Positions 25,409 to 43,350 of a DNA stretch of 64,000 nt are shown piece by piece. The position numbers were made by a program, and so were the translations under genes. Origin of the DNA: an uncultured Gemmatimonadaceae bacterium (GTDB lineage Bacteria; Gemmatimonadota; Gemmatimonadetes; Gemmatimonadales; Gemmatimonadaceae); assembly GCA_963790305.1 (NCBI GenBank), contig CAWBOC010000009.1:672001-736000 (forward strand), read 5' to 3'. How positions within the stretch are numbered: the first letter of the stretch is position 1; every line of letters starts with the position of its first letter. The notes under the pieces are model-generated. The model did not search any database. It saw only the letters and a program-made list of their open reading frames with translations, and was not told the origin of the DNA.

Positions 25409-25421
25409 CGACGACGAACTC

Positions 25422-26216: not shown

Positions 26217-26264
26217 CATCGCGTCCGAGGTCTGTGCTCGGCCCTTGCAGACCGCGTACCCGCG

Positions 26265-26395: not shown

Positions 26396-26468
26396 GGACG
26401 ACAGAGTTCCGAGTGACCGAGAGCGTCTTGGCCCGAGTCTCTGGATATGCCCCGACAGTGACCTCGTC

Positions 26469-26828
26469 ATGCCGAGTTCCTCAAACCTTGCCCAACGCGC
26501 TGCCCTTACGGTGGTGGCCGCACTCGCAGTCACTGTTACTCTTCCGTCGCCCGCACACGCACAGCGCGTTGACAGCGTGACGGTGGCACCGGTGCGGTCA
26601 CCGACGATCCAGATCAGGATCCGCGGCAAGGCGCCCACGGATTCCGTCCACATAGACCCCGCAGATATCGAGATCATTGAGATCCTGAAGTCAGATCTCC
26701 CCGCCCGTTACAGCCCGTGGCGGGGATGCGGTCCGATCATTGTGAGGGTGCCGCCCCGTCGGTGGACGCTCGAGTCACTGTTGCGGCTCCAACCGGACAT
26801 TCCGCATCACGACCCGCCGCAGAACTAA
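26469..26828 (+). CDS. Cassette hypothetical secreted protein
   Basis: Signal-peptide-like N-terminus (AHA); stop just after R''. Confidence 0.5.
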   Translation: MPSSSNLAQRAALTVVAALAVTVTLPSPAHAQRVDSVTVAPVRSPTIQIRIRGKAPTDSVHIDPADIEIIEILKSDLPARYSPWRGCGPIIVRVPPRRWTLESLLRLQPDIPHHDPPQN

Positions 26829-26956
26829 CCGTTGCAACTGTCAGGCGCGACCGTTAGGGTAGCCATCGCAGTTCGTGTGCTTCAAGTGCAACTGCAAAGC
26901 GCGCTGTCGCGCGCTTTCAAGAACACCGCCTGCAGTTGAACGGTATAGCGTTCTGC
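26819..26956 (+). repeat. attC 4
   Basis: gcagaac...gttctgc. Confidence 0.9.
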
Positions 26957-27000
26957 CGAGCACAGGCTCTGTAGCGAAGCGACCCTACATCACCTCTGCT

Positions 27001-27323
27001 ATGACGCGCGTAGAGCAGGAACAAGTCGAGGTATATTCGCGCGATACGAACGCATGGATCGTCCGAACGCCCGGGCGACAGTACCCAGCGCTCGTCGTGC
27101 AGGGCGACTCGTTCGAATACCTTCGTCGCGCTCGCGCAGTCGATTGTTAAGCGGGCTCGAACGTGCGGGTGTGCCGACGATGAACTGGTGGAAGAGAGCC
27201 GAAGAGCTACGCGACCTTCTCTCAGCTCGCCTCTCTCACTATACGACCGCGCTCGGGCAGTACGGCTTCGATGTGCCGTTCGGGCAGCGATACGCATCCA
27301 ACGTAGCGCGTGGTCACCGATAG
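27001..27323 (+). CDS. Cassette small protein (DUF6959-like), frameshifted
   Basis: VEVYSRDTNAWIVRTPGRQYPALVVQGDS, then EELRDLLSARLSHYTTALGQYGFDVPF in another frame. Confidence 0.5.
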
Positions 27324-27334
27324 CGTTCCCGCCG

Positions 27335-27471
27335 GCAGAACTAACCGTTGCACCTGTCAGGCGCGACGGTTAGGGTAGCCATTGCAGTTCGAGCGCCTTG
27401 AAGTGCAACTGCAAAGCGCGCTGTCGCGCGCTTGCAAGAAGACCGCCTGCAGGTGAACGTAAGCGTTATGC
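27335..27471 (+). repeat. attC 5
   Basis: gcagaac...gttatgc. Confidence 0.9.
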
Positions 27472-27490
27472 GACACCCACCTCTCGACTA

Positions 27491-27997
27491 ATGCCACGTT
27501 TGTTCATCGCGCTGGCCACCTTCATTGCAGTAGCCGCCTGCGCGCCACCTGCAACGATTACGGACGCCCCGCGCACCATTCCTTTCCGAGCCGCGCTCGA
27601 GCCGCCTTTCTCCGACTCGGCGCTATTGAGCGGCGAGGTGACCATCCTTCCCGATCGGCTCGAAATCGTTCTGCATCGTCTCGATTACGTGATCCGAAAT
27701 CGGACTGGCACCCGCCCCCCAGACTCCCTTAAAGTCGCTTTGGCGACGGGCGTCCAGCATGCGCGCTGGGATCGTGAAGCGGAAAGTGCGGCCGTCCCGT
27801 TCCTCGACGCATTCCGGGCAATCAGCGACGCGCGCTCACCAGTGCGCTTCGTTATCGCGCGACCGGCCGGGCGCACGCTCGGTCGACGCTGGCTCAGCTT
27901 CCTTTTCACTCTGCACCATCCAGCTCGCGAGGGAGAACCAGCACTCGACGGCTATTATTTTGCGCATACGGATGCTCGGCTCTTCGAGGCTCCATGA
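27491..27997 (+). CDS. Cassette hypothetical lipoprotein
   Basis: MPRLFIALATFIAVAAC lipobox. Confidence 0.65.
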   Translation: MPRLFIALATFIAVAACAPPATITDAPRTIPFRAALEPPFSDSALLSGEVTILPDRLEIVLHRLDYVIRNRTGTRPPDSLKVALATGVQHARWDREAESAAVPFLDAFRAISDARSPVRFVIARPAGRTLGRRWLSFLFTLHHPAREGEPALDGYYFAHTDARLFEAP

Positions 27998-28023
27998 CCG
28001 CCCGACGGCCCTCAGCGCGTGTC

Positions 28024-28158
28024 GCATAACTAGCTGTTGCACCTGTCAGGCGCGATGTCTAAGGTAGTCATCGCGTTTGATCTCCTTGAAGTGCAACTGC
28101 GAAGGCGGGCGTTGCCCGCCTTCTGGACGATCGCCTGCAGGTGAACGCAGCGTTATAC
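28024..28158 (+). repeat. attC 6
   Basis: gcataac...gttatac. Confidence 0.9.
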
Positions 28159-28172
28159 AGCACGGACATTTC

Positions 28173-28598
28173 GATGAAGTAGGCGAGACTCGCTCCGCGC
28201 TTCGTTGATCGCCACTGTCTCCTCTTGGCAGCCTGCGCCAACGCCGATGGCGATCGGTTCGCGCGCACGTTCATTACGCGTCTGGCCGCTGGCGACTGCG
28301 CAGCCTTCTCGCATGTCAGCCGGCAGTGAAGTGAGTCGACGCGGTTGGGCCTCGATCGCCGCGATGGGGGAGTCGATTACACCGGGCGAGCTGCGGAGTC
28401 TCCATTTGATCGACGAAGAACACGGCGTCGATTCTCAGGGCGCGTACCGCAGACTGATCTACGAGTTTGCCCGCGTGGGCGGGACGGCTCACGTTGAGCT
28501 ATGGCTCATCGATCACATGGGCAGACATATATCAACACAGTACGCATCCGTCGGCTCCGCAGCGCCGGCGCCGAGAGTTCGAACGTCTCGATGCGGCT
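28173..28598 (+). pseudogene. Broken cassette gene (lipoprotein-like fragments)
   Basis: CLLLAACANADGDRFARTF in one frame, GAYRRLIYEFAR...VELWL in another; no clean ORF. Confidence 0.35.
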
Positions 28599-28734
28599 GT
28601 ATAACTAGCTGTTGCACCTGTCGAGCGCGATGTTTAAGGAAGCCATCACGTTTGAACCCCTTCCGGCGCGTTGCCGCGGGTGAGCGCCCTGCCTTTCGGG
28701 GCAGATCGCTCTGCAGGTGAACGCAGCGTTCTGC
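28599..28734 (+). repeat. attC 7
   Basis: gtataac...gttctgc. Confidence 0.88.
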
Positions 28735-28771
28735 GGCTACCAACTCTGGACTCGGCGTATGCTTGCATCGC

Positions 28772-29056
28772 ATGAAGTTCCACTCGCCCCGCCCTAACTT
28801 CATCAAGACCGACGCTGGCTTCAGCGTTGAGGTCTTGGGCCGGACCGGCCTTCGCTATCGGGAAGGACTCCGGAGCGTTTTCGTCGACTCAGAGATTCTC
28901 GCCGGTCCAGCCGGAATCGCAGTATTTCAGAAGTCGATTAGGCGGTGGGGGTTTCCATTCTCTCTGTGGCGCATCGGTCCGGCGCGCCGGACAAAGATCC
29001 TGGAGAACATTCGGGCCGCTTTTCAGTCGGAAGGCATCAACGTCGATGTCGGATAG
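28772..29056 (+). CDS. Cassette small protein, possibly immunity-protein-like (Imm74-like, unverified)
   Basis: GFSVEVLGRTGLRYREG...VDSEIL...SIRRW...ILENIRAAF pattern recalled from such proteins. Confidence 0.5.
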   Translation: MKFHSPRPNFIKTDAGFSVEVLGRTGLRYREGLRSVFVDSEILAGPAGIAVFQKSIRRWGFPFSLWRIGPARRTKILENIRAAFQSEGINVDVG

Positions 29057-29087
29057 CAGCGCACAGCCCTCAGCATCGCGACCAGCC

Positions 29088-29225
29088 GCAGAACTAACCG
29101 CTGCAACTGTCAGGCGCGATGTCTAGGGTAGCCATCGCAGTTCATCTCCTTCAAGTTCAACGGCAAGGCGCGCATACGCGCGCCTTTAAGAGCGCCGCCT
29201 GCAGTTGAGCGGTATAGCGTTCTGC
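29088..29225 (+). repeat. attC 8
   Basis: gcagaac...gttctgc. Confidence 0.9.
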
Positions 29226-29247
29226 GGACGAAGGGACCCTATGCGTG

Positions 29248-29689
29248 TTACTCGTCGCGGGTCCGAAAGAAGGCAAGGACATACCCGTCGGCATCACTAA
29301 CCTCGAAGCCCCAGAGGCCATCGTCGATGAACGACAGTTCCTTCACGAACGAGGCACCCCGCTGCTTGAACTCCTCGAACAGAGCGTCGGGGTCAAGGGT
29401 ATAGATGTAGGCATCCCAGCGAGCCCATTCGTGCCGGAGGTGGTTGGGACAGGGAAGCACGTCGGGACATGATGGTCTTCAGCATGATGCCGATCCCGTC
29501 CCGGCTCACGTGGCCGTAGTACACGTCGTCGGGCGGACCCTGGAAGTCCAGCTGGAAGCCGAAGCGCTCGATGTAGTGGGCGATCGAGGCCTGCAGGTCC
29601 TTCACGATGAAGAACGGACTGATTGAAGCGAGGTTTCCCCTCGCTCCTTCCGGATTTGCGCGTTGTGAATCGCTCCTGGTTGAGCTCAT
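29248..29689 (-). CDS. VOC/glyoxalase-family protein, reverse-oriented in cassette, +1 frameshift near 29465
   Basis: ISPFFIVKDLQASIAHYIERFGF ... FEVSDADGYVLAF; span 3n+1. Confidence 0.75.
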
Positions 29690-29946
29690 GGCTGGCACTC
29701 CTGACATTCTGAACGGCAATGTGGGCTGGGGAAACGTGCACGATCCTGGATAGGATCGTATCCGACGTCGTAGCATCTCACAGTGGCTTGATCCAGAGGA
29801 ATGCTCAACCGCCGATCCCGTACTGCTCGAGTGGGCGCTCACCGACGATGAGGCGCTAGCTCAAGAGAGCCGATCGAGTGATCTCGGCGCTAGCCCAGCT
29901 CAAGGGCCGCGACTAGCGACGTCAACTCGAGCTCCACGAAGCCGCC

Positions 29947-30080
29947 GCAGAACTAGCAAATGCAACTGGCACGCGGGATGTCCAAGGAAGTCATCGCAGT
30001 TCGGTGCCTTTGAGTGCAACACCAGGCGCGCTGTCGCGCGCCTTTGAGTCGACCGCGTGCAGTTGAGCGCGGCGTTCTGC
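29947..30080 (+). repeat. attC 9
   Basis: gcagaac...cacgcgg/ccgcgtg compensatory stem...gttctgc. Confidence 0.88.
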
Positions 30081-30309
30081 CGACGCGCAGCCGTCTGTTC
30101 CGCGAACTCCGCTTCAAAGCGATGCTCCGCGAGTGAAGCTTTGTGAATGCGGGTTCGAGCTTATCACGCGACGGTCACGTACGGCTGGGATCGGATCGCT
30201 ACGAAGGGCGCGAGTCCGAACGCGCTTCGCAGCAATACATTGGCGATCGCGCGCAGTGGCGAGTTGGTGGCGCGGGTCGGCGGCGTGGCCAGGAAGGGCG
30301 CGGCAGAAC
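30074..30309 (+). other. ORF-less cassette, family member 1
   Basis: No credible ORF; termini shared with cassettes at 36290, 37192 and 39517. Confidence 0.75.
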
Positions 30310-30436
30310 CGTAGCACCTGCCGAGCGCGAGTGTTAAGGTAGCCATCACATTTAACCGCCGTCGCACTCGCTGCGACGCGAAGCAACCTGCCCCTTCGGG
30401 GCAGATCGCTCGCAGGTGAACGGTATAGCGTTCTGC
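30303..30436 (+). repeat. attC 10 (subtype B; 4-bp deletion after R'')
   Basis: gcagaaccgtagcacctg versus gcagaactaaccgtagcacctg in attC 18. Confidence 0.8.
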
Positions 30437-30513
30437 CGACAGCAGGGCTTCATGCTAGATTAAGGCAGTGCAGGCGCAGTTCGATCCCGACGAGCCTATC
30501 GCTCCGAACCAGC

Positions 30514-30720
30514 ATGCATCTCACTCTCGAAGTCGACCGCGAAGAGGATGGCCGGTGGATCGCCGAGGTTCCCGATCTCAAAGGCGTCTTCGCCTACGGG
30601 GCATCGCGCGACGAAGCGATCGCCCACGCCCAAGCGCTCGCCCTCCGCGTCCTCGCCGATCGCCTCGAGCACGGCGAGGCCGGGCCCGATCTGGTCAGCG
30701 TTTCCTTCCGCGCCGCCTAG
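30514..30720 (+). CDS. hicB: HicB-family antitoxin
   Basis: EVDREEDGRWIAEVPDLKGVFAYGASRDEAIA. Confidence 0.85.
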   Translation: MHLTLEVDREEDGRWIAEVPDLKGVFAYGASRDEAIAHAQALALRVLADRLEHGEAGPDLVSVSFRAA

Positions 30721-30744
30721 CTCCTTCCATAACGGGCTTCGTTC

Positions 30745-30958
30745 GTGGCCGCCTGGCCTTCGACCCGCGCCCGGGCGTGTGCTCGCCGCGCTCCTCCGCA
30801 TTGGCTGGCGCATCAAGCGCGAAACCGGTTCCCATAAAACCCTCGCGCGCGACGGATGGCCGGACTACGTGTTCGCGTTCCACGAGGGCGACGAGATCGG
30901 GCCGAGGATGCTCTCACGCATCGCCAAGCACACGGGGCTCAAGCCTGAAGATCTCTGA
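30745..30958 (+). CDS. hicA: HicA-family toxin, +1 frameshift near 30772
   Basis: MAAWPSTRAR / RVLAALLRIGWRIKRETGSHKTL...FHEGDEIGPRMLSRIAKHTGL; span 3n+1. Confidence 0.8.
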
Positions 30959-30965
30959 CCCTGCG

Positions 30966-31103
30966 GCAGAACTACCCGTTGCAACTGTCAGGCGCGATTG
31001 TTAGGGTAGCCATCGCAGTTCGCCTCCTTGAAGGGCAACTGCGAAGGCGCGCTGTGCGCGCCTTCGGAAATGCCGCCTGCAGTTGAACGGGATCGCGTTC
31101 TGC
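30966..31103 (+). repeat. attC 11
   Basis: gcagaac...gttctgc. Confidence 0.9.
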
Positions 31104-31156
31104 AGCCACGTCCCACAACGATAGGTCAGATTTCGCGCTGCCTCACACGACACGAC

Positions 31157-31570
31157 ATGCCCACATCTTCGCAGGGTGACCTTGCGCGAATCGAGGCGCT
31201 CCACGAAGCCGACATGCGCGCGTCGAGGGACGGGGACTATCAGACGCTCCGATCGATAATGTCGGATGATGCCGTGGTGCTACCGCCGGGCGGTCGCCTC
31301 ATTCGTGGCCGCGAAGCGCTCGATCGGAGTTTCGCCGCGATGAGCGCGACGGAGGCACCGACGGAAGTACTTGAGTATCGCTTCGACTGGCAGGAGATCC
31401 GCGTCCTCGGCGACTACGCGTTCGAGTGGGGCTACATTCACGGCAAAGAGCGCCACAAGACCAGCGGAGCGATCAGCTCGGAACTGTACCAGGTCATGCG
31501 CATCCTGCAGCGGCAGCCCGACGGTGCGTGGAAAGTTCACCGAACAATCTGGAACGAGCCAGCGAAGTAG
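31157..31570 (+). CDS. NTF2-like DUF4440 protein
   Basis: DDAVVLPPGG..IRGREA, GDYAFEWG, RILQRQPDGAWKV. Confidence 0.8.
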   Translation: MPTSSQGDLARIEALHEADMRASRDGDYQTLRSIMSDDAVVLPPGGRLIRGREALDRSFAAMSATEAPTEVLEYRFDWQEIRVLGDYAFEWGYIHGKERHKTSGAISSELYQVMRILQRQPDGAWKVHRTIWNEPAK

Positions 31571-31621
31571 CCTCCGGCACTCAGCGTCACGTATTTTCCC
31601 AAGAGGTTGGGCACGCCGGCT

Positions 31622-31756
31622 GCAGAACTAGCTGTTGCACCTGTCAAGCGCGATGTTTAAGGAAGTCATCACCTTTGAACCCCTTGAAGTGCAACTGCGA
31701 AGGCGAGCTTTGCTCGCCTTCTGAGAAGCCGCCTGCAGGTGAACGCAGCGTTATGC
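31622..31756 (+). repeat. attC 12
   Basis: gcagaac...gttatgc. Confidence 0.9.
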
Positions 31757-31783
31757 GGGCACGTCACTTCTGACGGAATCGAC

Positions 31784-32041
31784 ATGAGCAGATTCTGGCA
31801 ATACGTCGCCCTGGCTTTCGCGGTCGCCGCGCTTCTGGCATCCGTCTACTTCGGCATCGCCGCCGGCCGATTCCTCAACCCCACCCGCAGTGCTGCTGGT
31901 AAGTCGACGGCCTTCTTTTTTACGCGGAAGATGCCCCAGGATTTCATCGCGCCGGGCTATCGACTTTACACGCGCCACGTGGCCGCACTGGCTGTGGCAG
32001 TTGGTTTCCTGCTTGTGGCCGCCATTATTGGCCGCACGTGA
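31784..32041 (+). CDS. Small two-TM membrane protein (paralog of 52971-53228)
   Basis: FWQYVALA...FFTRK...GYRLYTRHVAALA shared with the distal copy. Confidence 0.75.
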   Translation: MSRFWQYVALAFAVAALLASVYFGIAAGRFLNPTRSAAGKSTAFFFTRKMPQDFIAPGYRLYTRHVAALAVAVGFLLVAAIIGRT

Positions 32042-32111
32042 GCTCAATCCCGGTGGTCTCGCGGGCAAGGGTCGCGCGCAAGACACCCGCCGTAAGAATC
32101 GTCCAGCGCCC

Positions 32112-32247
32112 GCATAACTAGCGCTTGCAACCGGCAGGCGCGACGGTTAAGGAAGCCATCGCAGTTCGGTGCCTTCAAGTGCAACAGCAGGCGCGCGTCC
32201 GCGCGCCTTTGAGTTGACCGCCTACAGTTGAATGGCGGGCGTTATGC
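32112..32247 (+). repeat. attC 13
   Basis: gcataac...gttatgc. Confidence 0.88.
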
Positions 32248-32274
32248 GGATGCCAAGCTTGTGCGCATGGTTAG

Positions 32275-32815
<541 letters not shown>

Positions 32816-32821
<6 letters not shown>

Positions 32822-32950
32822 CTAGCTGTTGCACCTGGCAGGCGCGATGTTCAGGGGAAGCCATCACGTTCGAACCCTTCAAGTGCAACTGCGCAGGCGG
32901 GCGTTGCGCGCCTTCTGGAAGATCGCCTGCAGGTGAACGCAGCGTTCTGC
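32816..32950 (+). repeat. attC 14
   Basis: gcataac...gttctgc. Confidence 0.9.
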
Positions 32951-33110
32951 GGACCGCGAGCATCGTTCGTAGGACGACGCTTCCGAATGTCCGGGATTCG
33001 ATCACGGACCACCTCGTACTAGAACACTCCACAGCGCTCAGCCGTTATCCGAATCGTTAATCGGTCGCTCACCGACCGGGTGCGTTTCTTCAAGCTTGCG
33101 GAGGCATGAT

Positions 33111-33578
33111 ATGACCACTCGAACTATTGCTACACTGCTGCTGCTGACCTGCGTTACAACCCACGCAAGCGCTCAGGCTGCGCGGCGGGACACCCTCGCA
33201 GAAGCACGCATCCGTGCCCTCGACAATGAAGAGCGCCTCGCGGCCCTCAACCAGGACTACACGGCGTTGGAGAGGCTTTGGTCCGAGCATTTTCTCGTCA
33301 ACGCGCCGTCCAACCGCATCTTGCCAAACCGGAACGCCGTTCTGGACTGGTTTCGCAAGGGAATGACGACGCGTTCATCCTACGACCGGAGGATCGAGCA
33401 CATCCGCGTTGATGGTGACATAGCAATTGTAATGGGCGAGGAGACAGTAACGCCGACCGCGAACGCGCCGCATGCGGGACAGGTGGTGCGTCGCCGGTTC
33501 ACCAACATTTGGAAGAAGGAAGGCGATACCTGGCGCCTATGGGCGCGCCACGCCAATGTGATCGCGGCACCGAATTAA
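33111..33578 (+). CDS. Secreted NTF2-like DUF4440 protein
   Basis: Signal peptide; DGDIAIVMGEE...RRFTNIWKKEGDTWRL. Confidence 0.8.
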   Translation: MTTRTIATLLLLTCVTTHASAQAARRDTLAEARIRALDNEERLAALNQDYTALERLWSEHFLVNAPSNRILPNRNAVLDWFRKGMTTRSSYDRRIEHIRVDGDIAIVMGEETVTPTANAPHAGQVVRRRFTNIWKKEGDTWRLWARHANVIAAPN

Positions 33579-33788
33579 CGAAGGAAAGGTCGCTCGGGGC
33601 ATGCCGAGGACGTCGAAGTCTATCCCGGTAACTCTCTACTTCTCGAGTTCATAGTGGGCCTTGAGCGGCTATGCGACTGGGTGGATAAGCGAGTCTCTAG
33701 TAACCCGCGCGAGAATCTTTAGGCGCGCTTCTCCGCGAGGTGCCTCACGCCCATCCCGTGCCGGAATAATCAGCATCGTTATGCCGCC

Positions 33789-33924
33789 GCATAACTACCC
33801 ACTGCACCTGACGAGCGCGATGTCCAAGGACGCCATCACATTTACGGCCTGTCGCGCTCGGCGCGACCGCGAGCACCCGTCTCCTGCGGAGCCGGACGCT
33901 CGCAGGTGAATGGGAGCGTTCTGC
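33789..33924 (+). repeat. attC 15 (subtype B)
   Basis: gcataac...gacgagcg...cgctcgcaggtg...gttctgc. Confidence 0.85.
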
Positions 33925-34340
33925 GGAACCGGGCCACACGGTTACCTTTATTGTCCATGCGACGCTTGACGGTAGGCGCAACACTCGCCCTCACTGCGTG
34001 CGCCACCCCCTTGCCCCCGAGCCACGCGGACACCAACCCCGTGGAGACGCGCCTCGCCCGACCGGCTCCTATCCAGCGCGCTCAGCTCACCTCCCGCAAC
34101 CGCAGCTCAACCCTACGGGCAGCCCTTTTTTGCTTGTCGTTCGCCCCTGCTGGACGCCCCTGCAACTCCAGTTGACCGACAATAGGCCTGATGACGTTAG
34201 GCTCTTCGTCGTTCGGCTCGCACCAACCGCGATCACTCCTTCTCATCATGGGCCGCTCACGCGATCGAACATGAAAAACTCTGAAAGCGTATCTCGTTTC
34301 GGGCGTCGCTGTGGGATGAGCGTCGTCGCCATCTCTATGC

Positions 34341-34691
34341 TTGGCGGCTATCTCATGCGGCCCTGGCCCACCTTCTCCTACGCTCTGTTCATTCCCGATG
34401 CACGTACGGACCACGCCGGGAACGGAACCGAAGTTCGATTGGGATGCGTGCGAAATGACCGTGCTTTTCGTCACCGTGGAAGGTTCCTCACCCCGTGAGT
34501 TTATGTGGTGGATCGAGACGACAGAAGGCGCTGAGCTGAGGTCGGGCGTCGTGTACGGGCATCCGCCCGAAGGGGCTGTGGAAGTGATCGCGCCTCGCAG
34601 CCTCGTTCGCGGCGAGACGTACGCTGTGCACGTCATGCATCAACCCGGCAGCGGGCGACAGGAGATTGGCGGCGGGGTATTCGGTTACTGA
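34341..34691 (+). CDS. Cassette hypothetical protein (N-terminus probably frameshifted)
   Basis: PKFDW...MWWIE...SGVVYG..PEGA....PRSLVRGETYAVHV. Confidence 0.5.
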   Translation: MAAISCGPGPPSPTLCSFPMHVRTTPGTEPKFDWDACEMTVLFVTVEGSSPREFMWWIETTEGAELRSGVVYGHPPEGAVEVIAPRSLVRGETYAVHVMHQPGSGRQEIGGGVFGY

Positions 34692-34902
34692 CCGCGGCAT
34701 TGAGAGCGCAGCACCAGTTCTCTCTGCGTTAATACGCGGGGCGTGGGTTCGAGTCCCATCTTGGGAGTCATTGCACCGGAGTCTCCGACCCGCCGACGAG
34801 CACGCGCTCGAGGACCTTCTCGCGAGCAGCCGCGAGCACGAACATCACTAGCGCGTCCCCAGCACCGCGAACAACCTGATCGGACTCGTGTGGTTGGGTT
34901 CG

Positions 34903-35100
34903 GGTCGAATTGAGCGGGCGGAATGGAATGCTACTTTTTTTGTTATTCCATCGCTGTACGCAGCGTTAGCCGGCGCAATACTTTGGTACGCGGCACATAC
35001 ATCATTGGTGCATTGCCGCTTACGGTGGGGTGTTCCATAGTGAGGACAGCGGCCTACGCTTCGTGTGCCGCGAAAACTTGCTGCAGAATAGGCGTTATGC
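34903..35100 (+). promoter_or_regulatory. Second, diverged copy of the attI region inside the array (crossover at 35094)
   Basis: About 85% identical by eye to 23945-24143; identical 3' end cgaaaacttgctgcagaataggcgttatgc. Confidence 0.85.
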
Positions 35101-35211
35101 GGCTACAGGCTATGACTCAAGTCGAACCGGGGCCTACTCAGCTGAGAATACGCATTGCGGGCGTGGAGTGCGCGTGACCTCCTATGTGTGCGAATCGTTT
35201 CTCAATACCGT

Positions 35212-35640
35212 ATGACACACCGTTGCTCTACGGCCGCACGCTTCCTCTTAGCGACGCTGTTGAATGCGGGCCTCCTTCTGGTTCGGAGGCTGGCTGAGTG
35301 CCCGTGGGCGCCCTGGCAACAATGGGTCTTCGGCCTGCCCTATTTCCTCGCATGCTGTTCCTCCTGCCGATCCTGCTCCTCGCGCCTCGGGGTCCGCGCA
35401 CTGCCCGACCCCGTGAGTATCGTCACAGCCAGTGCGCTCTCCTACCTTCTTGCTGGTGCCGTTGACTGTCTACCTGGCGTACGTACTTCTTCGCCAGGGC
35501 CGCCAAGGGTAGCATTCACCGTGGGCGGTCGTAGATGCTGCTTTTGCTTGCCGGCGCACTATCTCTGGGCTGGATTGGCTTCATGTTGTATCACGCCTTC
35601 CTCTCGTTCGCCCGCAAGAAACGTCGCAGCGCTAAGTTAA
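35212..35640 (+). pseudogene. Frameshifted membrane-protein cassette gene
   Basis: Hydrophobic segments alternate between frames (TLLNAGLLLV, IVTASALSYLLAG, LLLAGALSLGWIGFMLY). Confidence 0.4.
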
Positions 35641-35714
35641 CCTCACCGCACCCTTCGGTGCCTGGAAAGCAGATGCCATGGCGATCACTTGCGGGACAAT
35701 TCACGAAGGCGCCT

Positions 35715-35850
35715 GCATAACTAGCATGTTGCACCTGACGAGCGCGATGTTTAAGGTAGCCATCACATTTCACCGCCGTCGCGCTCCGCGCGACAGCGAG
35801 CACCCGTCTCCTTCGGAGACGGACGCTCGCAGGTGAACGCAGCGTTATAC
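35715..35850 (+). repeat. attC 16 (subtype B)
   Basis: gcataac...gttatac. Confidence 0.88.
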
Positions 35851-36168
35851 AGACGGCCAGGCATTCAACCGCCAGGAACAGCACGACGACTTAATTGTTG
35901 GCTCCTCGCGCTCTCGTAAGTGCGACGCACCAAGCGCCGCTCGTGGAGCGCGGTGCGAGTTCGCGCACCACGAGGTGTCATTGATTTCGACCGCGATAGC
36001 TCCGCCGGACACGCTGCTGGCGGCACAAGCGGTCGGCCGTTCGGAATTCTGTGCGGCCACGGTGGGACAACTCGTCATGCACGCTCTTGCAGTGCACCGC
36101 CCTGCCGCACATTGTGGAGTCCGCGCTCAGCGCACGTAGCGCCGGTGATTCGGAGTGGGCTGTATAAC
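35844..36168 (+). other. Probable ORF-less cassette, unrelated to the four-member family
   Basis: gttatacag...ctgtataac boundaries; only low-credibility ORFs. Confidence 0.55.
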
Positions 36169-36296
36169 TAGCTGTTGCAACTGGCAGGCGCGACGTCCAA
36201 GGAAGCCATCACAGTTCGTGTGCTTCAAGCGCAGCAGGAAAGCGCGCTATCGCGCGCTTTTGAGCAAGCCGCCTGCAGTTGAACGCAGCGTTCTGC
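36162..36296 (+). repeat. attC 17
   Basis: gtataac...gttctgc. Confidence 0.9.
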
Positions 36297-36449
36297 CGAC
36301 GCGCGGTCGTCAGTTCCACGCGCTTCTCGCGACCGGCGTTGATGCAGGCCAAGACTCCCCTAACCATTTGGCGTACTCGCGCTCCGGCAATGCCACAATG
36401 TCGTGAGACAGTAAGAAGCCAGCACGTTAGCGCGTCCACCCTGATTCGG

Positions 36450-37000
36450 GTGGGTCTCACACTGCTGATCGCACTTGCCGTCGCCGGCTGCGAGCAGCGG
36501 CAGGACGCCAGTCGAGCAGCGTCCAGCGGGGATAGTCAACGAACGACGGCCACTCTCCGACTCCCTACCCATTCGACGACTCGAGCCATCGATTGCAGGG
36601 ATCTACCGTTTCAATAGCGGTATTCCCGACAGCACGTTTACCACCGTACGCGACGTAGTTCGTCTGGGAGGACATGTGGCGTCGATTGAGCGCACAACAC
36701 AGGCCGGTTCGGTCGCCTCCGCCTGTCGACTTCCAAAAGGAGATGGCAGTGGTCGCGACCCTGGGCGAGAGACGCACCACCGGCTACGTGATCACTATCG
36801 AGGCCGTGAGCGACCGCGGTGCATACCTCGAGGCTCACATATGGCGTCGCGCGCCCGGACGGGATTGCGGCGTAGGCGGAATGGTCACCGCGCCTGCAGA
36901 CGTTGCCATTGTTCCGCGACGCGAGGTGGAGGTCCGCGTGCTCACGCATGATCGTGTAACGGACTGTAGTAGGCGTCGTGAGCCCGACCTCCGTAACTGA
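36450..37000 (+). CDS. Lipoprotein with PrcB C-terminal-like domain (two frameshifts), inside ORF-less-family termini
   Basis: LIALAVAGC lipobox; PPVDFQKEMAVVATLGERRTTGYVITIEAV...PGRDC...VTAP. Confidence 0.6.
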
Positions 37001-37059
37001 GCGGTCGCCCGCGTGGCGAGTTGATGGCGCGGGTCGGCGACGTGGCCTGGAAGGGCGCG

Positions 37060-37198
37060 GCAGAACTAACCGTAGCACCTGACGAGCGCGAGTGTTAAGG
37101 TAGCCATTGCATTTAACCGCATGTCGCGCTCCGCTCGACACGAGCGCCCGCACGCTTCGCGCGAAGATCGCTCGCAGGTGAACGGTATAGCGTTCTGC
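37060..37198 (+). repeat. attC 18 (subtype B)
   Basis: gcagaac...gttctgc. Confidence 0.9.
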
Positions 37199-37458
37199 AG
37201 ACGCGCGGCCGTCTGTTCCACGCGCTTCGCGCAAGCGGCTGATCGAAAGGGCGAGTGGCTTTCTTAATCATTGAGGACTGAAAGCGCCGATCGCCACGAA
37301 GGACGCGTCTTGAGTCCCTTCCTTAGCAAAACGATCGCGATCACGCCGCGGCGGGTGGATGGTCCGAGGACTCGTCCCAGAAAAACACCGGCGAGCAAAC
37401 GCGGCGAACGAGTTGGTGGCGCGGGCCGACGGCGTGGCCAAGAAAGGCGCGGCAGAAC
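37192..37458 (+). other. ORF-less cassette, family member 2
   Basis: Shared termini and internal blocks with 30074 and 39517 cassettes. Confidence 0.75.
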
Positions 37459-37591
37459 TGACCGTAGCACCTGACGAGCGCGAGTGTTAAGGTAGCCATC
37501 ACGTTTGAACCCCTTCTCGCGCTGCGCGCGAGGCTGAGCGCCCCGCCCCTTCGGGGCAGACCGCTCGCAGGTGAACGGTATGGCGTTCTGC
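37452..37591 (+). repeat. attC 19 (subtype B)
   Basis: gcagaac...gttctgc. Confidence 0.9.
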
Positions 37592-37611
37592 AGCTTCACT
37601 AGCTTTGTCGC

Positions 37612-38043
37612 ATGGACGTTTCGGCCACACTCCAACTAGGCGTCGAGATTCTCACGCCGGTACTCGCGCCCCACGGCTTTCACTTCGAGTTCCGAGAATC
37701 CGACAAGGGGAGCGGGGGGCATTTCGCCTGGGGCCAGTTCGTCCGCGGTGATCGCCGCCTCGAGCTGCACTTCCGGCACGCCCTCGGCTTAGTCACGTAT
37801 CACCTGGGCGACGTCGTTCTCACCCATGAAGACTTTATGCGGGTGGCGCTTGGTGGCGCGCGGGAGAATGCCTATCCCGGATTCTCGAATGACCCGCTCG
37901 ACGGGTTTCGTCACCTCCGACACGATCTCGAGCGCTTTGCTGCCGCCTTCCTCGCAGGCACCGACGCTCAATTCAAGGCGATCGTGGACCAGGCGCGCTT
38001 GCATCCACCCGCGCGCGGCTTGCGGGCGATAGATCGCGCATAA
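37612..38043 (+). CDS. Cassette hypothetical protein
   Basis: 143-aa ORF exactly filling a cassette bounded by gttctgcagctt/aagctgcagaac. Confidence 0.75.
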   Translation: MDVSATLQLGVEILTPVLAPHGFHFEFRESDKGSGGHFAWGQFVRGDRRLELHFRHALGLVTYHLGDVVLTHEDFMRVALGGARENAYPGFSNDPLDGFRHLRHDLERFAAAFLAGTDAQFKAIVDQARLHPPARGLRAIDRA

Positions 38044-38047
38044 AGCT

Positions 38048-38184
38048 GCAGAACTAACGGTTGCAACCGTCAGGCGCGACGGCCAGGGTAGCCATCGCAG
38101 TTCGTGTGCTTGAAGTGCTACGGCAAAGCGCACTATCGTGCGCTTTCAAGAGCGCCGCCTGCAGTTGAACCGCGCGCGTTCTGC
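38048..38184 (+). repeat. attC 20
   Basis: gcagaac...gttctgc. Confidence 0.9.
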
Positions 38185-38265
38185 GGATGCTAGAGTCCGT
38201 CCCGACTTTGAGGTGGCTGGCCGTCGCGCTCCGTGGCATATTCCAGCTTCTCCCGACCCCGTCTC

Positions 38266-38457
38266 ATGGATATCAAGGCCGAAGCACGACGCCTCATCGA
38301 TCAGCTCCCCGACGACGCCACATGGGATGATCTCATGTATGAGATCTACGTCCGCCAGGCCATCAATGCCGGGCTCGCCGACGTCGAGGCCGGCCGCGTC
38401 ATCCCGCACGAGGAAGTCCGCTCCCGCCTCGGCCTCGGGAAGAAGCGCTCGGCGTAG
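38266..38457 (+). CDS. Putative antitoxin upstream of RelE/ParE toxin
   Basis: LIDQLPDDATWDDLMYEIYVRQAINAGLADVEAGRVIPHEEV; overlaps the toxin start. Confidence 0.8.
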   Translation: MDIKAEARRLIDQLPDDATWDDLMYEIYVRQAINAGLADVEAGRVIPHEEVRSRLGLGKKRSA

Positions 38458-38744
38458 TGCGTGTCCTTTGGTCGGAAGGGGCGCTCCAACACCTCGCGGC
38501 CATCTATCAGTACATCGCGCAAACGTCGCCCGTCTACGCCGAAGGCGTTGTCGACCGCATTTGGCACCGGAGTGGACAACTCGGAGAGTTCCCTGACTCC
38601 GGCCGCGAGGTCCCTGAGTACAAGCGACCAGACATTCGCGAGATCATCCAGGGGTCCTATCGCGTGATCTACCGACGAGGCAGCGACGCGATTCAGGTTC
38701 TCGCCGTCATCCACGGCGCGCGCCGCTTGCCTCCGCTCCGTTGA
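38457..38744 (+). CDS. RelE/ParE-family toxin
   Basis: VLWSEGALQHLAAIYQYIA...FPDSGREVPE...IREII.GSYRVIYR...VLAVIHGAR. Confidence 0.88.
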   Translation: MRVLWSEGALQHLAAIYQYIAQTSPVYAEGVVDRIWHRSGQLGEFPDSGREVPEYKRPDIREIIQGSYRVIYRRGSDAIQVLAVIHGARRLPPLR

Positions 38745-38766
38745 TGTCGACATCGCCAACGGCACC

Positions 38767-38903
38767 GCAGAACTAACGGTTGCAACTGTCAGGCGCGACT
38801 GTTAGGGTAGCCATCGCAGTTCGTGTGCTTCAAGTGCAACGGCCAAGCGCACTGTCGTGCGCTTTCAAGAGCGCCGCCTGCAGTTGAACCGTGGGCGTTC
38901 TGC
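38767..38903 (+). repeat. attC 21
   Basis: gcagaac...gttctgc; near-identical to attC 20. Confidence 0.9.
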
Positions 38904-38973
38904 GTACACCGAGCCCCGTTCGAAATTGTAGCTTCGTAGCCTCGCGGTTCGTACCCACTGACGCGCTTCGCTT

Positions 38974-39360
38974 ATGCCTCAGGATCGCAAGACCGGTGCA
39001 GCCGGCAATCAGTTCGGCCACGAGAACGCACCGAAGATCGCCGAGGCAATTGGTGCTACTCTCACGCGCGACGGTACTAACGAGGCCATGTGGGAAGGCA
39101 AGCGCGCAGTAATCAAATCCGCTCGAAAAAACACCTCGAGCGTCGGTGTCACCTATTCCATGCTCGACACTCTAGACGTCGTCATCGCGGCCTTTCAGCA
39201 CAGAACCGGCCCTTATGATGTCTACGTTCTTCCCGCTGCCCGATTTGCCGAGCTGGCTGTCGATAGCCGCAGCAGCGGTGCCGCTGGTGGCGTCGGTATC
39301 GTGTCGCGAAAGGCATTTATGGAGGAAGGAAAACGCATTAAGGTAGTGCGAGCCTCCTAG
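38974..39360 (+). CDS. Cassette hypothetical protein
   Basis: 128-aa soluble ORF filling the cassette. Confidence 0.7.
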   Translation: MPQDRKTGAAGNQFGHENAPKIAEAIGATLTRDGTNEAMWEGKRAVIKSARKNTSSVGVTYSMLDTLDVVIAAFQHRTGPYDVYVLPAARFAELAVDSRSSGAAGGVGIVSRKAFMEEGKRIKVVRAS

Positions 39361-39388
39361 CTCGACGTTAGGGCTCACCGCGCCTGAC

Positions 39389-39523
39389 GCAGAACTAGCT
39401 GTTGCACCTGTCCGGCGCGATGTTCAAGGAAACCATCACGTTTGATCGCCTTCAAGAGCAACTGCAAAGGCGGGCGTTCGCCCGCCTTTGCAAAGCCGCC
39501 TGCAGGTGAACGCGGCGTTATGC
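39389..39523 (+). repeat. attC 22
   Basis: gcagaac...gttatgc. Confidence 0.88.
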
Positions 39524-39761
39524 CGACGCGCAGCAGTCACGTCCACGCGCTTCTCGCGGCCGGCATTCGTGAAAAGAACGGCACTTTCTTTTGAACGTCA
39601 CGCTGCTTGAGCTCCGCGCACGACGGCCACGTAGGCTTCGCCATCACGCCGCAGCGGGTGGACTCTTGCAGCTCCCAGCGCGGCAAGACGGTGCAGTTCG
39701 CGTTAGCTAGTCAGCTTGGTGGCGCGCTTCGGCTGCGTGGCCAACAAAGGCGCGGCATAAC
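39517..39761 (+). other. ORF-less cassette, family member 3
   Basis: Shared termini and internal blocks; core is gttatgccg/cggcataac. Confidence 0.75.
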
Positions 39762-39894
39762 CAACCGTAGCACCTGACGAGCGCGAGTGTTAAGGTAGCC
39801 ATCGCGTTTGAACCCCTTCTCGCGCTGTCGCGCGAGACAAGCGCCCTGCCCCTTCGGGGCAGACCGCTCGCAGGTGAACGGTATAGCGTTATGC
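39755..39894 (+). repeat. attC 23 (subtype B)
   Basis: gcataac...gttatgc. Confidence 0.9.
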
Positions 39895-40027
39895 AGCGAC
39901 CGAGGTCATCGTGTCGACCGGCTCGTCGCCCCGCATGATACAAGCTGGAGACAGGCTTAGTGATCGCGATTTCCTGGAGTCAAACCGGCGAGACGGAAGA
40001 CGCGGAGGTGGTTCCGTTACCACGCAA

Positions 40028-40510
40028 TCACGAGCTTTTTCGTGTCAACTGTACCACCTGCGTACTCGGGCGCCCCGCTGCCGTAGCGCGGTAGATCAGA
40101 TCGACCCGGTCGTCACTCAAGAAGACCAGTTCCAGGTTCGTCGTATGATAAGCCTGCGGATGCGAAAGGTTCGTAATGTCGTACATCGTGAACGTGATCT
40201 TGCTGTCGCTCAGCGTCTCCAGACGCATGCGCGGCTGGTTGCCGCGCGCGCAATAGTGTGTGAGCGTAAGCTTGTCGCCGTCCAGTTTGAAGATCGTGAG
40301 TTGCCCGGCTTCGTCCTGGATGAGCGTCTTGCCGCCGTCCGTCACCCGGTACGTCGTGACACCCCGTGATCCGCCACCACTCATGCTCCAGCTGCCGGTA
40401 AGCCCTTTGAGGCGGTCGAAGCCCGTGCGGCCGTCAAGCTGCTGGCTTTGGGCTGTTGCCGCTTGCGATAACGTCACGAGTGCCGCCAGACAAATCGTCT
40501 TCGCCAGCAT
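40028..40510 (-). CDS. Secreted hypothetical protein, reverse-oriented in cassette
   Basis: GGAGG RBS, signal peptide, FDRLKGLTGSW, LTHYCARGNQPRM. Confidence 0.75.
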   Translation of the reverse strand: MLAKTICLAALVTLSQAATAQSQQLDGRTGFDRLKGLTGSWSMSGGGSRGVTTYRVTDGGKTLIQDEAGQLTIFKLDGDKLTLTHYCARGNQPRMRLETLSDSKITFTMYDITNLSHPQAYHTTNLELVFLSDDRVDLIYRATAAGRPSTQVVQLTRKSS

Positions 40511-40673
40511 GCTGGTGCCTCCGATTTGGTAGTTACATGCCACTGCCTCATTGAATCCGACACCTTCGGGAACGGAGAGGTTGCCCTTTGACAACGAACA
40601 GGTATCCGCTACCAAGTCGCTGAAGGGTGCGATGGGTCTCTCACACTACGTAGGGAGTGGGTACCGCCGGGCT

Positions 40674-40806
40674 GCATAACTAGCTGCTGCAACTGTCAGG
40701 CGCGATGTTCAATGAGGCCATTGCGGTTGGTCGCCTTTAAGTTCAACTGCACGGCGCGCGTAGCCCGCCTTCGAAGAGCCGCCTGCAGTTGAGCGCGGCG
40801 TTATGC
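40674..40806 (+). repeat. attC 24
   Basis: gcataac...gttatgc. Confidence 0.88.
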
Positions 40807-40940
40807 GCGACACCAAGCTCCTTTTTTGCGTCGAGTCTTTCGTGACGTCGAGTACTTCGTCGAATACGCTCTTCACGAAGGAACCGCCTGGGGGCGTCAG
40901 CATTCTTCTTTCAGGCAACTATCGAGGCGGAGGTTCGGAC

Positions 40941-41411
40941 GTGTATCTGGCAATGAAGACTCTGCATGTCCTCGCGGTCGTTCTCTTCCTGGGGAACATC
41001 ATCACCGGCATCTTTTGGAAGGTCCACGGCGACCGGACCGCCGACCCGCGGATTATCGCGCACACTCTTGAAGGCATTATCCGCAGTGACCGGTGGTTCA
41101 CCATTCCCGGGGTGGTACTCATCCTCGGGTTCGGGGTGGGGGCCGCCGTCATCGGTGGGCTTCCGATCTTGGGCACCGGTTGGATTTGGCAGTCGATCGC
41201 CCTCTTTGCGGTCTCGGGACTGGCCTTCATGCTGCAGGTGGCGCCCCTACAGCGCCGCCTCCAAGCGTTGGCCTCGGTTGGAGTGGGCGGCGGGCCCTGG
41301 GACCAGGTGGCGTACCGCCGACTCTCGCGCCGGTGGGAACTCTGGGGAGTCGTGGCCCTTGTGACGCCTCTGGCGGCCTTGGTCTTGATGGTCTACAAGC
41401 CTAGCCCGTGA
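40941..41411 (+). CDS. DUF2269-like membrane protein
   Basis: GGAGG RBS; KTLHVLAVVLFLGNI, DRWFTIPG, LMVYKP C-terminus. Confidence 0.75.
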   Translation: MYLAMKTLHVLAVVLFLGNIITGIFWKVHGDRTADPRIIAHTLEGIIRSDRWFTIPGVVLILGFGVGAAVIGGLPILGTGWIWQSIALFAVSGLAFMLQVAPLQRRLQALASVGVGGGPWDQVAYRRLSRRWELWGVVALVTPLAALVLMVYKPSP

Positions 41412-41420
41412 GCGCGCGAT

Positions 41421-41441
41421 GCATAATGAGCAGCGTTATGC
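41421..41441 (+). repeat. Collapsed attC remnant
   Basis: gcataat-gagcagc-gttatgc: R''-like and R' with the interior deleted. Confidence 0.65.
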
Positions 41442-41498
41442 GACTACCAATGTCTCGTCAGCCAGACCCGACGAATCCTCCGACCAAGGAGTTGAGGA

Positions 41499-42035
41499 AT
41501 GGTGGCTTTAGGGGCACGGGAAGAGGCGGTCATTCGGAAGCACAGAGCGTCGGCGAAGAAAGCGGCGAGTACGCGGACGCGTCGCGCGGCTGGCAGAAAG
41601 GCAGCCACAGCCAGCAGCACACCATCCGTCATTCCGATGATCTCTTACGAGGATGGGATCGCGGCTTTGGAATGGCTTGCCAAGGCCTTCGGGTTTCGGG
41701 AGACGTCACGTGTCACAGGGCCGGACGGGAGGCTGTCGCACGGCGAGATGGAAGCAGGCGACGGATTGATCATGCTAGCGTCTCCCACACCTGACTACCG
41801 TAGTCCGAAACGCCATCGGGAGATTTGCGAGCAGGCGCGTATCTGGTCGGCGGTGCCATGGATTATCGACGGTGTGCTCGTTTACGTAGACGACCTCGAT
41901 CGACACTTCAAACGAGCAAAAGCAGCAGGTGCGACGATCCTTTCTGATATTCAGGAGGGGCCGCCTGGCCGGCGATATCGGGCGGAAGATCTCGAAGGGC
42001 ATCGTTGGTTCTTTTTCGACAGCGACGAAAAATGA
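41499..42035 (+). CDS. VOC/glyoxalase-family protein
   Basis: PMISYEDGIAALEWLAKAFGF, VYVDDLDRHFKRAKAAGA, YRAEDLEGHRWFF. Confidence 0.85.
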   Translation: MVALGAREEAVIRKHRASAKKAASTRTRRAAGRKAATASSTPSVIPMISYEDGIAALEWLAKAFGFRETSRVTGPDGRLSHGEMEAGDGLIMLASPTPDYRSPKRHREICEQARIWSAVPWIIDGVLVYVDDLDRHFKRAKAAGATILSDIQEGPPGRRYRAEDLEGHRWFFFDSDEK

Positions 42036-42045
42036 AGCCTTGGCT

Positions 42046-42140
42046 GGCTAACGAGCCGCTGCAGCCGACGAGCGGCGTGAGGAGGTCGGCTGAATCGAGA
42101 CAGTCCCGTGCCGCTCGCGGCTGAGCGGCAAGCATTAAGC
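42046..42140 (+). repeat. Foreign-type attC with mutated R' (ATTAAGC)
   Basis: ggctaac gagccgctgcagccgacgagcggc ... gccgctcgcggctgagcggcaagc attaagc. Confidence 0.75.
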
Positions 42141-42151
42141 GGAGCATCCCG

Positions 42152-42736
42152 ATGGTGAGTGCCACGCGCATGTGTGCGATTCCGCTTATGCTGCTCGGCG
42201 TAGGATCTGCCCCCGCGCAAGTATCGATTTCGCAGGGAAAGAGCGGTCGGGTTGTGGTACTTCCCGATTCGGCAATGCCTCATGTGCTTACGCGATGCTC
42301 GCGCGGCGGACCAACCGGGGTGTCCGGATTCTGGCGCCCTACTCCCGCTGACGTCGCCACGGCCGAGGAGGCCGTCGATCGCGCTCTTGCCCGCGCTCTC
42401 GATAGCGCTATCGCGCGCGACTCCGCCGGCCACAGGGAGTGGCTCGGCCGTCCGCGAACGAGTTGGCCGGATGAGTATTACCGTCAATATGCTGGGCTCA
42501 CGTATCGCGATGGCCGTCGCACCATTTACGTCAACGGATTGGCGGCAGGATGGCCCAGAGAGCTAAGCGAACGCGTCGGACAGTCTGAGGCCGCGGGCTC
42601 CGATCCGTTCGCCAAACCCGACTGGTGGCGGTTTAACGCCGCGCACGTCTGTGACGGCGGCGTGTTCTTTTTCGGCGCCGAGTATGACCCATTGAGCAAA
42701 CGGGTGCTTGCATTTCAGTTCAACACTCGCGCTTGA
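42152..42736 (+). CDS. Secreted hypothetical protein
   Basis: Signal peptide; YYRQYAG...IYVNG...VCDGG..FFGAEYD. Confidence 0.7.
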   Translation: MVSATRMCAIPLMLLGVGSAPAQVSISQGKSGRVVVLPDSAMPHVLTRCSRGGPTGVSGFWRPTPADVATAEEAVDRALARALDSAIARDSAGHREWLGRPRTSWPDEYYRQYAGLTYRDGRRTIYVNGLAAGWPRELSERVGQSEAAGSDPFAKPDWWRFNAAHVCDGGVFFFGAEYDPLSKRVLAFQFNTRA

Positions 42737-42766
42737 GTCAGCGTCAGCCCACTATCACGACCAGTC

Positions 42767-42901
42767 GCATAACTAGCGCTTGCAACTGTCAGGCGCGACG
42801 TTTAAGGAAGCCATCGCAGTTCGACCCATATGAAGTGCAACGGCAAAGCGCGCGTTCGCGCGCTTTTGAGCGCCGCCTGCAGTTGAAACGCGGCGTTATG
42901 C
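42767..42901 (+). repeat. attC 25
   Basis: gcataac...gttatgc. Confidence 0.9.
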
Positions 42902-42912
42902 GGACACCAGAC

Positions 42913-43146
42913 ATGACTCGCAATCTTACTCGATTCGCCCTTTGGATCGCGCTGACTGTTGTGGGCTCCACTCTGCTCGTCGTGCTCGCCTACTTCGTGA
43001 CCGGTTCCCTTGAGCAATTCCCCACAGAGGAGCAGCAAAACAACGTTCGAGTCGTAACAGGTGTCCTTGCGACCATACTGGTCGCCATCGAGATCGGGCT
43101 GTGGACCCTTCTTCGCCATACGAAGTCAAACGGACCCTCCCGGTGA
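42913..43146 (+). CDS. Small two-TM membrane protein
   Basis: Two hydrophobic helices around GSLEQFPTEEQQ. Confidence 0.65.
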   Translation: MTRNLTRFALWIALTVVGSTLLVVLAYFVTGSLEQFPTEEQQNNVRVVTGVLATILVAIEIGLWTLLRHTKSNGPSR

Positions 43147-43176
43147 GCGCGCTCCCAGAGCATCGCCGCGCCTGCC

Positions 43177-43324: not shown

Positions 43325-43350
43325 GTCGAAATTCAATCTCGGACCCTCAT

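Follow-up and report, generated by a model that had tools for sequence, protein, structure and literature searches.

Integron biology assumes one attI per platform, where new cassettes enter and from which expression falls with distance. Salmonella genomic island 1 (SGI1) carries a complex class 1 integron with two identical attI1 copies, the second of which is preceded by a partial intI1 and by duplicated conserved segments. The first and the second attI of SGI1 each have their own cassette or cassettes (PMC7056807). Clusters of attC sites without an integron integrase are named CALIN (Cury et al. 2016, PMC4889954), and the loss of intI is one of the origins proposed for them there. According to the same source, attI is unknown for most integrons and is searched only in classes 1-3. 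Standard tools would therefore miss copies of attI within an array. An attI sequence replacing an attC in mid-array is already known in mobile integrons: in the delta-attI cassettes (Gonzales Machuca et al. 2026, PMC12901181), the attC has given way to attI sequence ending at the G/TT crossover. They were reported 96 times among 1,685 class 1 integrons and 14 times among 57 class 2 integrons; among their attI parts are an attI2 fragment of 244 nt and, in one case, a complete attI1 of 65 bp (FN554979.1), most being 14-18 nt long (PMC12901181). IntI1 excised and inserted delta-attI cassettes, and a cassette between two complete attI1 sites was excised with 100 % frequency in the class 1 assay; as origin, a crossover involving the attC R'' has been proposed, and the former R'' is sometimes still recognisable (PMC12901181). 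The case presented here is new in its chromosomal setting. No report of a complete second attI in a sedentary chromosomal integron was found in the open-access literature searched.

The window, i.e., the whole stretch of 64,000 nt analysed, contains a complete chromosomal integron with an IntI-type recombinase and an array of attC sites with hairpins. The integrase gene intI (22912-23922, plus strand, stop codon at 23920-23922) is located downstream of two housekeeping genes assigned by Pfam, tsaD (21022-22062) and lgt (22059-22889). Its product of 336 aa scored 449 bits on TIGR02249 (cut-off 265) and aligned over its full length with VchIntIA of Vibrio cholerae (PDB 2a3v, 303 bits), including the segment around KYPNA...FP; it is an integron-type tyrosine recombinase with the IntI-specific insertion. 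About 70 clusters of IntI relatives were obtained at 77-98 % identity, and those with names belong to Gemmatimonadaceae or Gemmatimonadota; the named relatives at about 80 % identity are metagenome-assembled genomes of these taxa. The attC sites are read from R'' (GCAKAAC) to R' (GTTMTGC) on the plus strand, so integrase and cassettes have the same orientation and, as a consequence, attI is located at the 3' end of intI. The earlier note on this DNA, made from the sequence, mentioned neither this co-orientation nor the mid-array attI sequences already described in mobile integrons. Integrons with such a layout form the 'inverted integron-integrase' group, e.g., in certain Treponema spp. (PMC4889954). 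The likeness is limited to the layout of the host integron and has no bearing on a second attI.

The cassette array was mapped with a covariance model (R1), which was built from 26 attC sites and run over the window with filters off at E≤10. Twenty-six full-length attC sites were present (98-145 bits), 15 at 24600-33924 and 11 at 35715-44660, exactly the numbers that the earlier note had counted on the two sides of a supposed second attI. The proximal block (24144-33924, plus strand) consists of 15 cassettes, each with a terminal full-length attC of 131-138 nt. The distal array (35101-52008, plus strand) starts with 11 cassettes with full attC sites (105-141 bits) up to 44660 and continues with cassettes whose attC sites are degenerate. 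On model R1 the degenerate sites at 42047, 43177, 48424, 50207 and 51950 scored 25-50 bits and those at 45063 and 47313 only 12-14 bits; degenerate sites continue to 52008. Between 44661 and 52008 the attC sites decay toward the far end of the array (12-50 bits versus 98-145 bits for full sites), and larger minus-strand genes occur among them, an amidohydrolase gene (45724-46698) and a YdjC-like gene (48496-49644). Further upstream, between the degenerate attC 43177-43307 and the attC 44525-44660, two overlapping plus-strand ORFs in different frames (43273-44070 and 43928-44422) cover the PF00144 profile positions 7-189 and 189-313; this pair (43273-44422) looks like a frameshifted cassette gene of the beta-lactamase/serine hydrolase family.

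The attC sites have the layout R'' (RYYYAAC) to R' (GTTRRRY) with an imperfect hairpin, and in three of three sites folded the bottom strand paired R'' with R' (z from -3.4 to -6.3). Mean attC identity was 0.68 among the sites of the proximal block, 0.67 among those of the distal block and likewise 0.67 across the blocks, and for 11 of the 26 sites the nearest neighbour was located in the opposite block. By these measures, the attC sites of both blocks are one intermixed population. Colinear cassette duplications between the blocks were absent from the window, hence the two blocks are not a segmental duplication of an integron. The pair of attI sequences described below was the sole long duplicate in the window without an association to attC. 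Two attC sites, the one before cassette 16 (33789-33924) and the first after the second attI (35715-35850), are mutual nearest neighbours with 82 % identity. Both belong to an apparent minority subtype of about 6 of the 26 sites, as judged by eye from the alignment, and the pairing may be read as the trace of an insertion event or as a coincidence. Four cassettes, at 30243-30440, 37001-37202, 37409-37594 and 39716-39897, have 3' ends with 82-91 % identity that reach to about 50 nt upstream of the attC, into apparently coding sequence; they may be a related family spread across both blocks.

The resident attI (attI#1) was identified by its position between intI and the first cassette. On the plus strand it begins behind the intI stop codon and comprises everything up to and including the crossover heptamer GTTATGC (23923-24143, heptamer at 24137-24143), with cassette 1 following. 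A diverged copy (attI#2) was found by alignment at 34903-35100 on the same strand, ending at GTTATGC (35094-35100). In the local alignment of 23945-24143 with 34903-35100, 172 of 198 columns were identical (86.9 %) with one 1-nt gap, in accordance with the value of about 85 % estimated by eye in the earlier note. The length of 199 bp given there for the spacer describes the cleanly aligned part; from the intI stop to the end of the heptamer the spacer measures 221 nt. A blastn search with 23801-24160 against the whole window returned a single other match at E<0.01 (86.4 % over 199 nt, E 8e-64), thus exactly two attI copies are present in the window. The 31-mer ending at the crossover occurred twice, with one mismatch at its first base, and two matches were obtained in 0 of 100 shuffles. 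Since the mismatch is confined to the first base, the terminal 30 nt of the two copies are identical, as had been read before; given 26 mismatches in 198 columns, such a clean terminus has a probability of 0.010. The homology stops exactly at the GTTATGC crossover.

Both copies end in a core of the type GTTRRRY (24137-24143 and 35094-35100), the cassette starting after the G. Upstream of the core, an imperfect inverted repeat GCAGAAT-AGGC-GTTATGC can be read from the sequence as the attI simple site; it is identical in both copies and occupies 35083-35100 in attI#2. Its inverted L box, GCAGAAT, shares 5 of 7 positions with the inverse of GTTATGC at a spacing of 4 nt in both copies, and attI1 has a comparable arrangement, its inverted L box preceding the R box by a few bases (PMC12901181). 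The covariance model gave weak local matches at the ends of both sites (35070-35100 with 10.3 bits, 24126-24143 with 8.1 bits). Only attI#1 adjoins intI at the boundary to the first cassette; attI#2 is named attI from its homology to attI#1, not from its position. We rejected the view that attI#2 together with the R'' remnant upstream of it forms a giant attC, since 34860-35100 lacks an attC-like fold (z -1.6). The GC content is 0.566 in attI#1, 0.54 in attI#2 and 0.642 in the window. A 7-bp inverted repeat, ATGGAAT/ATTCCAT, with a T-rich loop of 15 nt is located at 23965-23993 and 34923-34951, with a hairpin predicted for attI#2, and a block of 17 nt, GCAATACTTTGGTACGC, was read from the alignment as identical in both copies.

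Cassette 16 starts at the R' box GTTCTGC (33918-33924), where its beginning had been placed before, and runs into attI#2 without an attC. Its body (33925-34866, plus strand) contains small ORFs, and Pfam assigned no family to those at 33906-34175, 33998-34498 and 34341-34691. The covariance model at E≤10 detected no attC in 33925-34902, nor did an nhmmer attC profile in 33925-35100; the observation that the attI copy stands where an attC is expected was thereby substantiated. A degenerate attC upstream of attI#2 was not apparent either, the best pairwise score to any attC being 23 as against 21.8 ± 2.5 for shuffled sequences. Cassette 16 thus resembles the delta-attI cassettes in lacking a 3' attC and in carrying attI-derived sequence up to the crossover in its place. 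In the 3' part of its body, a string resembling a tRNA T-arm, GGCGTGGGTTCGAGTCCCAT, occurs at 34740-34759. A tRNA 3' fragment was rejected, the match reaching only 12.3 bits (E 4.5) on the tRNA model and the searches with ARAGORN and with Rfam at the gathering score being negative; the string is probably due to chance. At a relaxed threshold, Rfam yielded only a chance lncRNA match in 33900-35300.

The left junction of attI#2 preserves two short remnants. The first one, at 34867-34877 (plus strand), reads GC-GAAC-AACC and matches GCAGAACTAACC, the consensus of the attC 5' end, within 2 edits, so that the damaged R'' suspected near 34865 was recovered. On both strands of the window, GCAGAACTAACC had 21 matches within 2 edits, of which 18 were attC sites found by the model; outside these, matches occurred at 29291, at 34867 and once on the minus strand. 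With its 11 nt and two 1-nt gaps, the remnant is too short for profile scoring by the covariance model or nhmmer, but a chance match at that exact place seems unlikely. Directly downstream, at 34878-34902 (plus strand), follows GATCGG, 8 nt and GGTTGGGT. Without gaps, 34878-34899 is identical to 23911-23932 in 16 of 22 positions (binomial p~1e-5 at fixed register), which supports the resemblance to the 3' end of intI that had been noticed earlier. The homology between the copies therefore extends 25 nt to the left of the clean attI alignment and into the last codons of intI; the counterpart in the first copy comprises the last three codons of intI, the stop codon and the first bases past it. 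From left to right, the junction thus leads from the cassette body through some 11 nt of an attC R'' end and some 12 nt of an intI 3' end into a complete attI. The region 34878-35100 is a genuine second attI copy of this integron family, which closes cassette 16 instead of an attC; it holds the entire spacer between intI and first cassette together with the terminal 12 nt or so of an intI gene. A second attI platform is located here at a cassette boundary, with no integrase adjacent to it.

We assign a probability of about 0.5 to the reading that cassette 16 is an attC-less cassette ending in the complete attI of a foreign lineage, and thus a chromosomal counterpart of the delta-attI cassettes. 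The donor would have been an integron of the order intI, attI, cassette and attC, in which the 5' (R'') end of the first attC became joined to the 3' end of intI. Such a join would circularise the attI together with the cassette body, and the circle could then integrate via its own G/TT crossover. Fifteen more cassettes, captured later at attI#1, would have pushed attI#2 down the array. We favour the travelling attI cassette because a normal integron layout suffices as starting point and because counterparts are documented in integrons of classes 1 and 2 (PMC12901181). The left join is off the canonical cleavage position of IntI, therefore one non-canonical event has to be assumed in the origin of the cassette.

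The locus shares with the delta-attI cassettes the replacement of the attC by attI sequence ending at the crossover and, with some of them, the recognisable remnant of the former R'' (PMC12901181). It differs in its host, which is not a clinical mobile integron but a sedentary one on the chromosome of a Gemmatimonadaceae-like genome, with 26 cassettes or more, and in the orientation of the integrase, which is co-oriented here, so that the flank preserved is the intI 3' end. Moreover, the whole platform of 221 nt is retained, compared to 14-18 nt in most known cases (PMC12901181), and the copy has diverged by 13 % from the resident attI and is probably foreign. Cassette 16, with its mid-array chromosomal attI, is a single case.

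A serious rival is the fusion with a second integron whose intI was lost, a scenario that we regard as possible but rather doubtful. Two integrons in tandem (array 1 followed by intI2, attI2 and array 2) would have lost, in one deletion, everything between a point just inside the cassette 16 attC and the final codons of intI2. The junction observed is the one that this deletion would leave, with an R''-like remnant ahead of sequence resembling the intI 3' end, and attI#2 is indeed complete and heads a long array with 11 full attC sites and decayed sites thereafter. It is accepted that integrase-less arrays can arise through the loss of the integrase (PMC4889954), and for the complex class 1 integrons of SGI1 a 'second attI site' is described (PMC7056807). 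However, the starting arrangement, with an intI directly downstream of an attC inside an array, is unusual and would itself need an explanation. The intI remnant measures only about 12 nt, and no copy of the upstream flank of intI is present in the window. Beyond the 12 nt, tblastn matched in the array region nothing but intI itself, and a six-frame profile search of 24144-54000 for an intI pseudogene returned only negative scores; a recognisable partial intI as in complex integrons is thus lacking upstream of attI#2. Compared with SGI1, nothing else has been duplicated and the two copies are 13 % apart. Also the attC sites of the blocks are intermixed and do not form two lineages. Like a CALIN, the distal block has no integrase of its own (PMC4889954), but it is joined to a complete integron without interruption, and an attI is still present in front of it. 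Deletion of intI2 from a tandem arrangement would give the identical junction, and both origins agree with the present sequence. Of the earlier reading, the second attI platform without an integrase has stood; of the two origins offered with it, we prefer the cassette-like unit over the fused integron.

The age and the source of attI#2 were approached with protein libraries, which were searched with spurious ORFs crossing attI as a substitute for the DNA of relatives. No protein matches were obtained for the minus-strand ORF 23788-24162 across attI#1 and for the attI#2 ORF 34923-35177 (residues 1-58, proteins of 46-147 aa). The plus-strand ORF 23927-24220 had four matches in the representative library. 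Two of them, P0122 and P0125, were dropped as long proteins matched in multiple stretches of low complexity; P0123 and P0124 were kept. P0123 is a predicted ORF of 176 aa from another organism, in which an attI homologue (aa 1-58) precedes a short cassette (roughly 250 nt) and then the 5' half of a same-family attC; a relative thus has the same organisation of attI, cassette and attC. The more distant P0124, likewise an ORF predicted in another organism, has residues consistent with a simple site CTGCAGAA...GTTCTGC. In the translated alignment of 58 columns of non-coding DNA, P0123 was identical to attI#1 in 45 and to attI#2 in 44 columns, and the two window copies were identical to each other in 41; this three-way comparison, with 7 changes unique to attI#1, 8 to attI#2 and 4 to P0123, is small, translated from non-coding DNA, unrooted and based on one outside sequence. 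Across the 1-nt indel, P0123 has the same reading frame as attI#2. Since P0123 is closer to each window copy than the copies are to each other, attI#2 is not a recent local duplicate, and the divergence that the earlier note had held against a recent duplication gained weight. The comparison also indicates that the attI copies are at least as old as the split from the attI of the other organism.

These values bear on an ancient duplication of attI within the same integron, the mid-array copy of which would have drifted in place to 13 % divergence. Such an event would require no horizontal transfer, and the copies are alike in layout, with a single 1-nt indel between them. But the unique changes are balanced (7 versus 8), the attI in P0123 is closer to either copy than they are mutually, and the 26 intact full-length attC sites nearby are hard to square with the long residence that a drift of 13 % would take; we consider this origin quite unlikely. 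Neither attI copy looks like a fast-decaying relic in its sequence. With 13 % divergence from the resident attI, attI#2 is probably foreign; most likely, it came from a related integron lineage, in which it had evolved as a working attI. Donor lineages are plausible in view of the approximately 70 IntI clusters at 77-98 % identity.

Further copies were sought at the DNA level. An exact 20-mer of the attI simple site had no match in the genome contigs scanned. A search guided by IntI alignments yielded at least 80 loci, the best among the matches listed being 52-64 % identical in IntI, and blastn with both attI copies against these 80 loci returned no match. The 80 loci were also screened for internal repeats by comparing 450 nt on each side of intI to the own locus, and 10 loci had matches. 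A second example of a mid-array attI was not present among L072, L075, L050 and L040 (L011, L015, L053, L067, L073 and L080 were left out). The repeat in L072 was a paralogous coding sequence, that in L040 a duplicated cassette, as judged by its coordinates alone. L075 (Burkholderiales) has direct repeats of about 280 nt (7229-7510 and 11019-11293, 86-93 %) that flank a 3.8-kb segment with intI, and it was rejected, no attC-like repeat family being present in the 21-kb locus. In L050 (Chthoniobacterales, 10886-11449), a second copy of the final 65 nt of intI occurs 458 nt downstream with 98 % identity, and the repeats flank a small ORF that starts at 11079, has an in-frame stop inside and presumably resembles small GIY-YIG nuclease genes. 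L050 was not counted as a mid-array attI; it looks like a small insertion into the 3' end of intI with a 65-nt target duplication.

An assembly artefact, i.e., a contig joining the integrons of two co-occurring strains, might be suspected because the lineage is probably uncultured, its IntI relatives being mostly metagenomic, and because arrays are rich in repeats. The left junction, however, shares only 6 nt (GATCGG), too little to mislead an assembler, and a chimeric join elsewhere, e.g., in an attC, would still leave one strain with an attI without an adjacent intI. A collapsed repeat is not compatible with the 13 % difference between the copies. We therefore regard an artefact as very improbable.

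The simple site of attI#2 is undamaged and does not differ from that of attI#1, so the resident IntI could probably still use it. Attachment site attI#2 could then serve this IntI as a second insertion point, and recombination between attI#1 and attI#2 could excise the block of 16 cassettes and 10,957 bp between the two crossover points. A cassette between two complete attI1 sites was excised with 100 % frequency in the class 1 assay (PMC12901181), thus a usable attI pair should be unstable; the block is nevertheless still here. The earlier note had also suggested an internal promoter. A scan for the sigma-70 consensus, which may not represent the motifs of this phylum, revealed no promoter-like site in either copy, and the suggestion was not supported. 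Whatever its origin, attI#2 might have been kept for a cassette promoter that restarts the transcription of the distal cassettes. The GC content of both copies is below that of the surroundings (0.57 and 0.54 versus 0.64), and they share long identical blocks, including the 7-bp hairpin with its 15-nt loop and the 17-nt block. At 26 mismatches in 198 columns, however, identical runs of this kind are by our estimate close to the chance expectation, and together with the missing sigma-70 consensus this makes a retention as promoter unlikely. Similarly unlikely, in our opinion, is a more general scheme, in which attC-less cassettes would carry attI platforms at their ends from one related chromosomal integron to another and split the arrays into attI-bounded blocks that the integrase could excise, transfer or re-insert as a whole, an internal attI providing a second point of capture and expression for a silent distal array.

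Mid-array attI sequences have so far been documented, and recently demonstrated to recombine, only in clinical integrons of classes 1 and 2, mostly as stubs of 14-18 nt (PMC12901181). A complete and apparently foreign attI in a large chromosomal array would show the same process in environmental sedentary integrons. The finding suggests a simple screen that current tools omit, in which the spacer next to intI is compared with the remainder of the array. A foreign attI in mid-array would show that attI itself is exchangeable between lineages and, if attI#2 is active, it would provide a route to the block-wise loss or transfer of many cassettes and a possible origin of integrase-less arrays.
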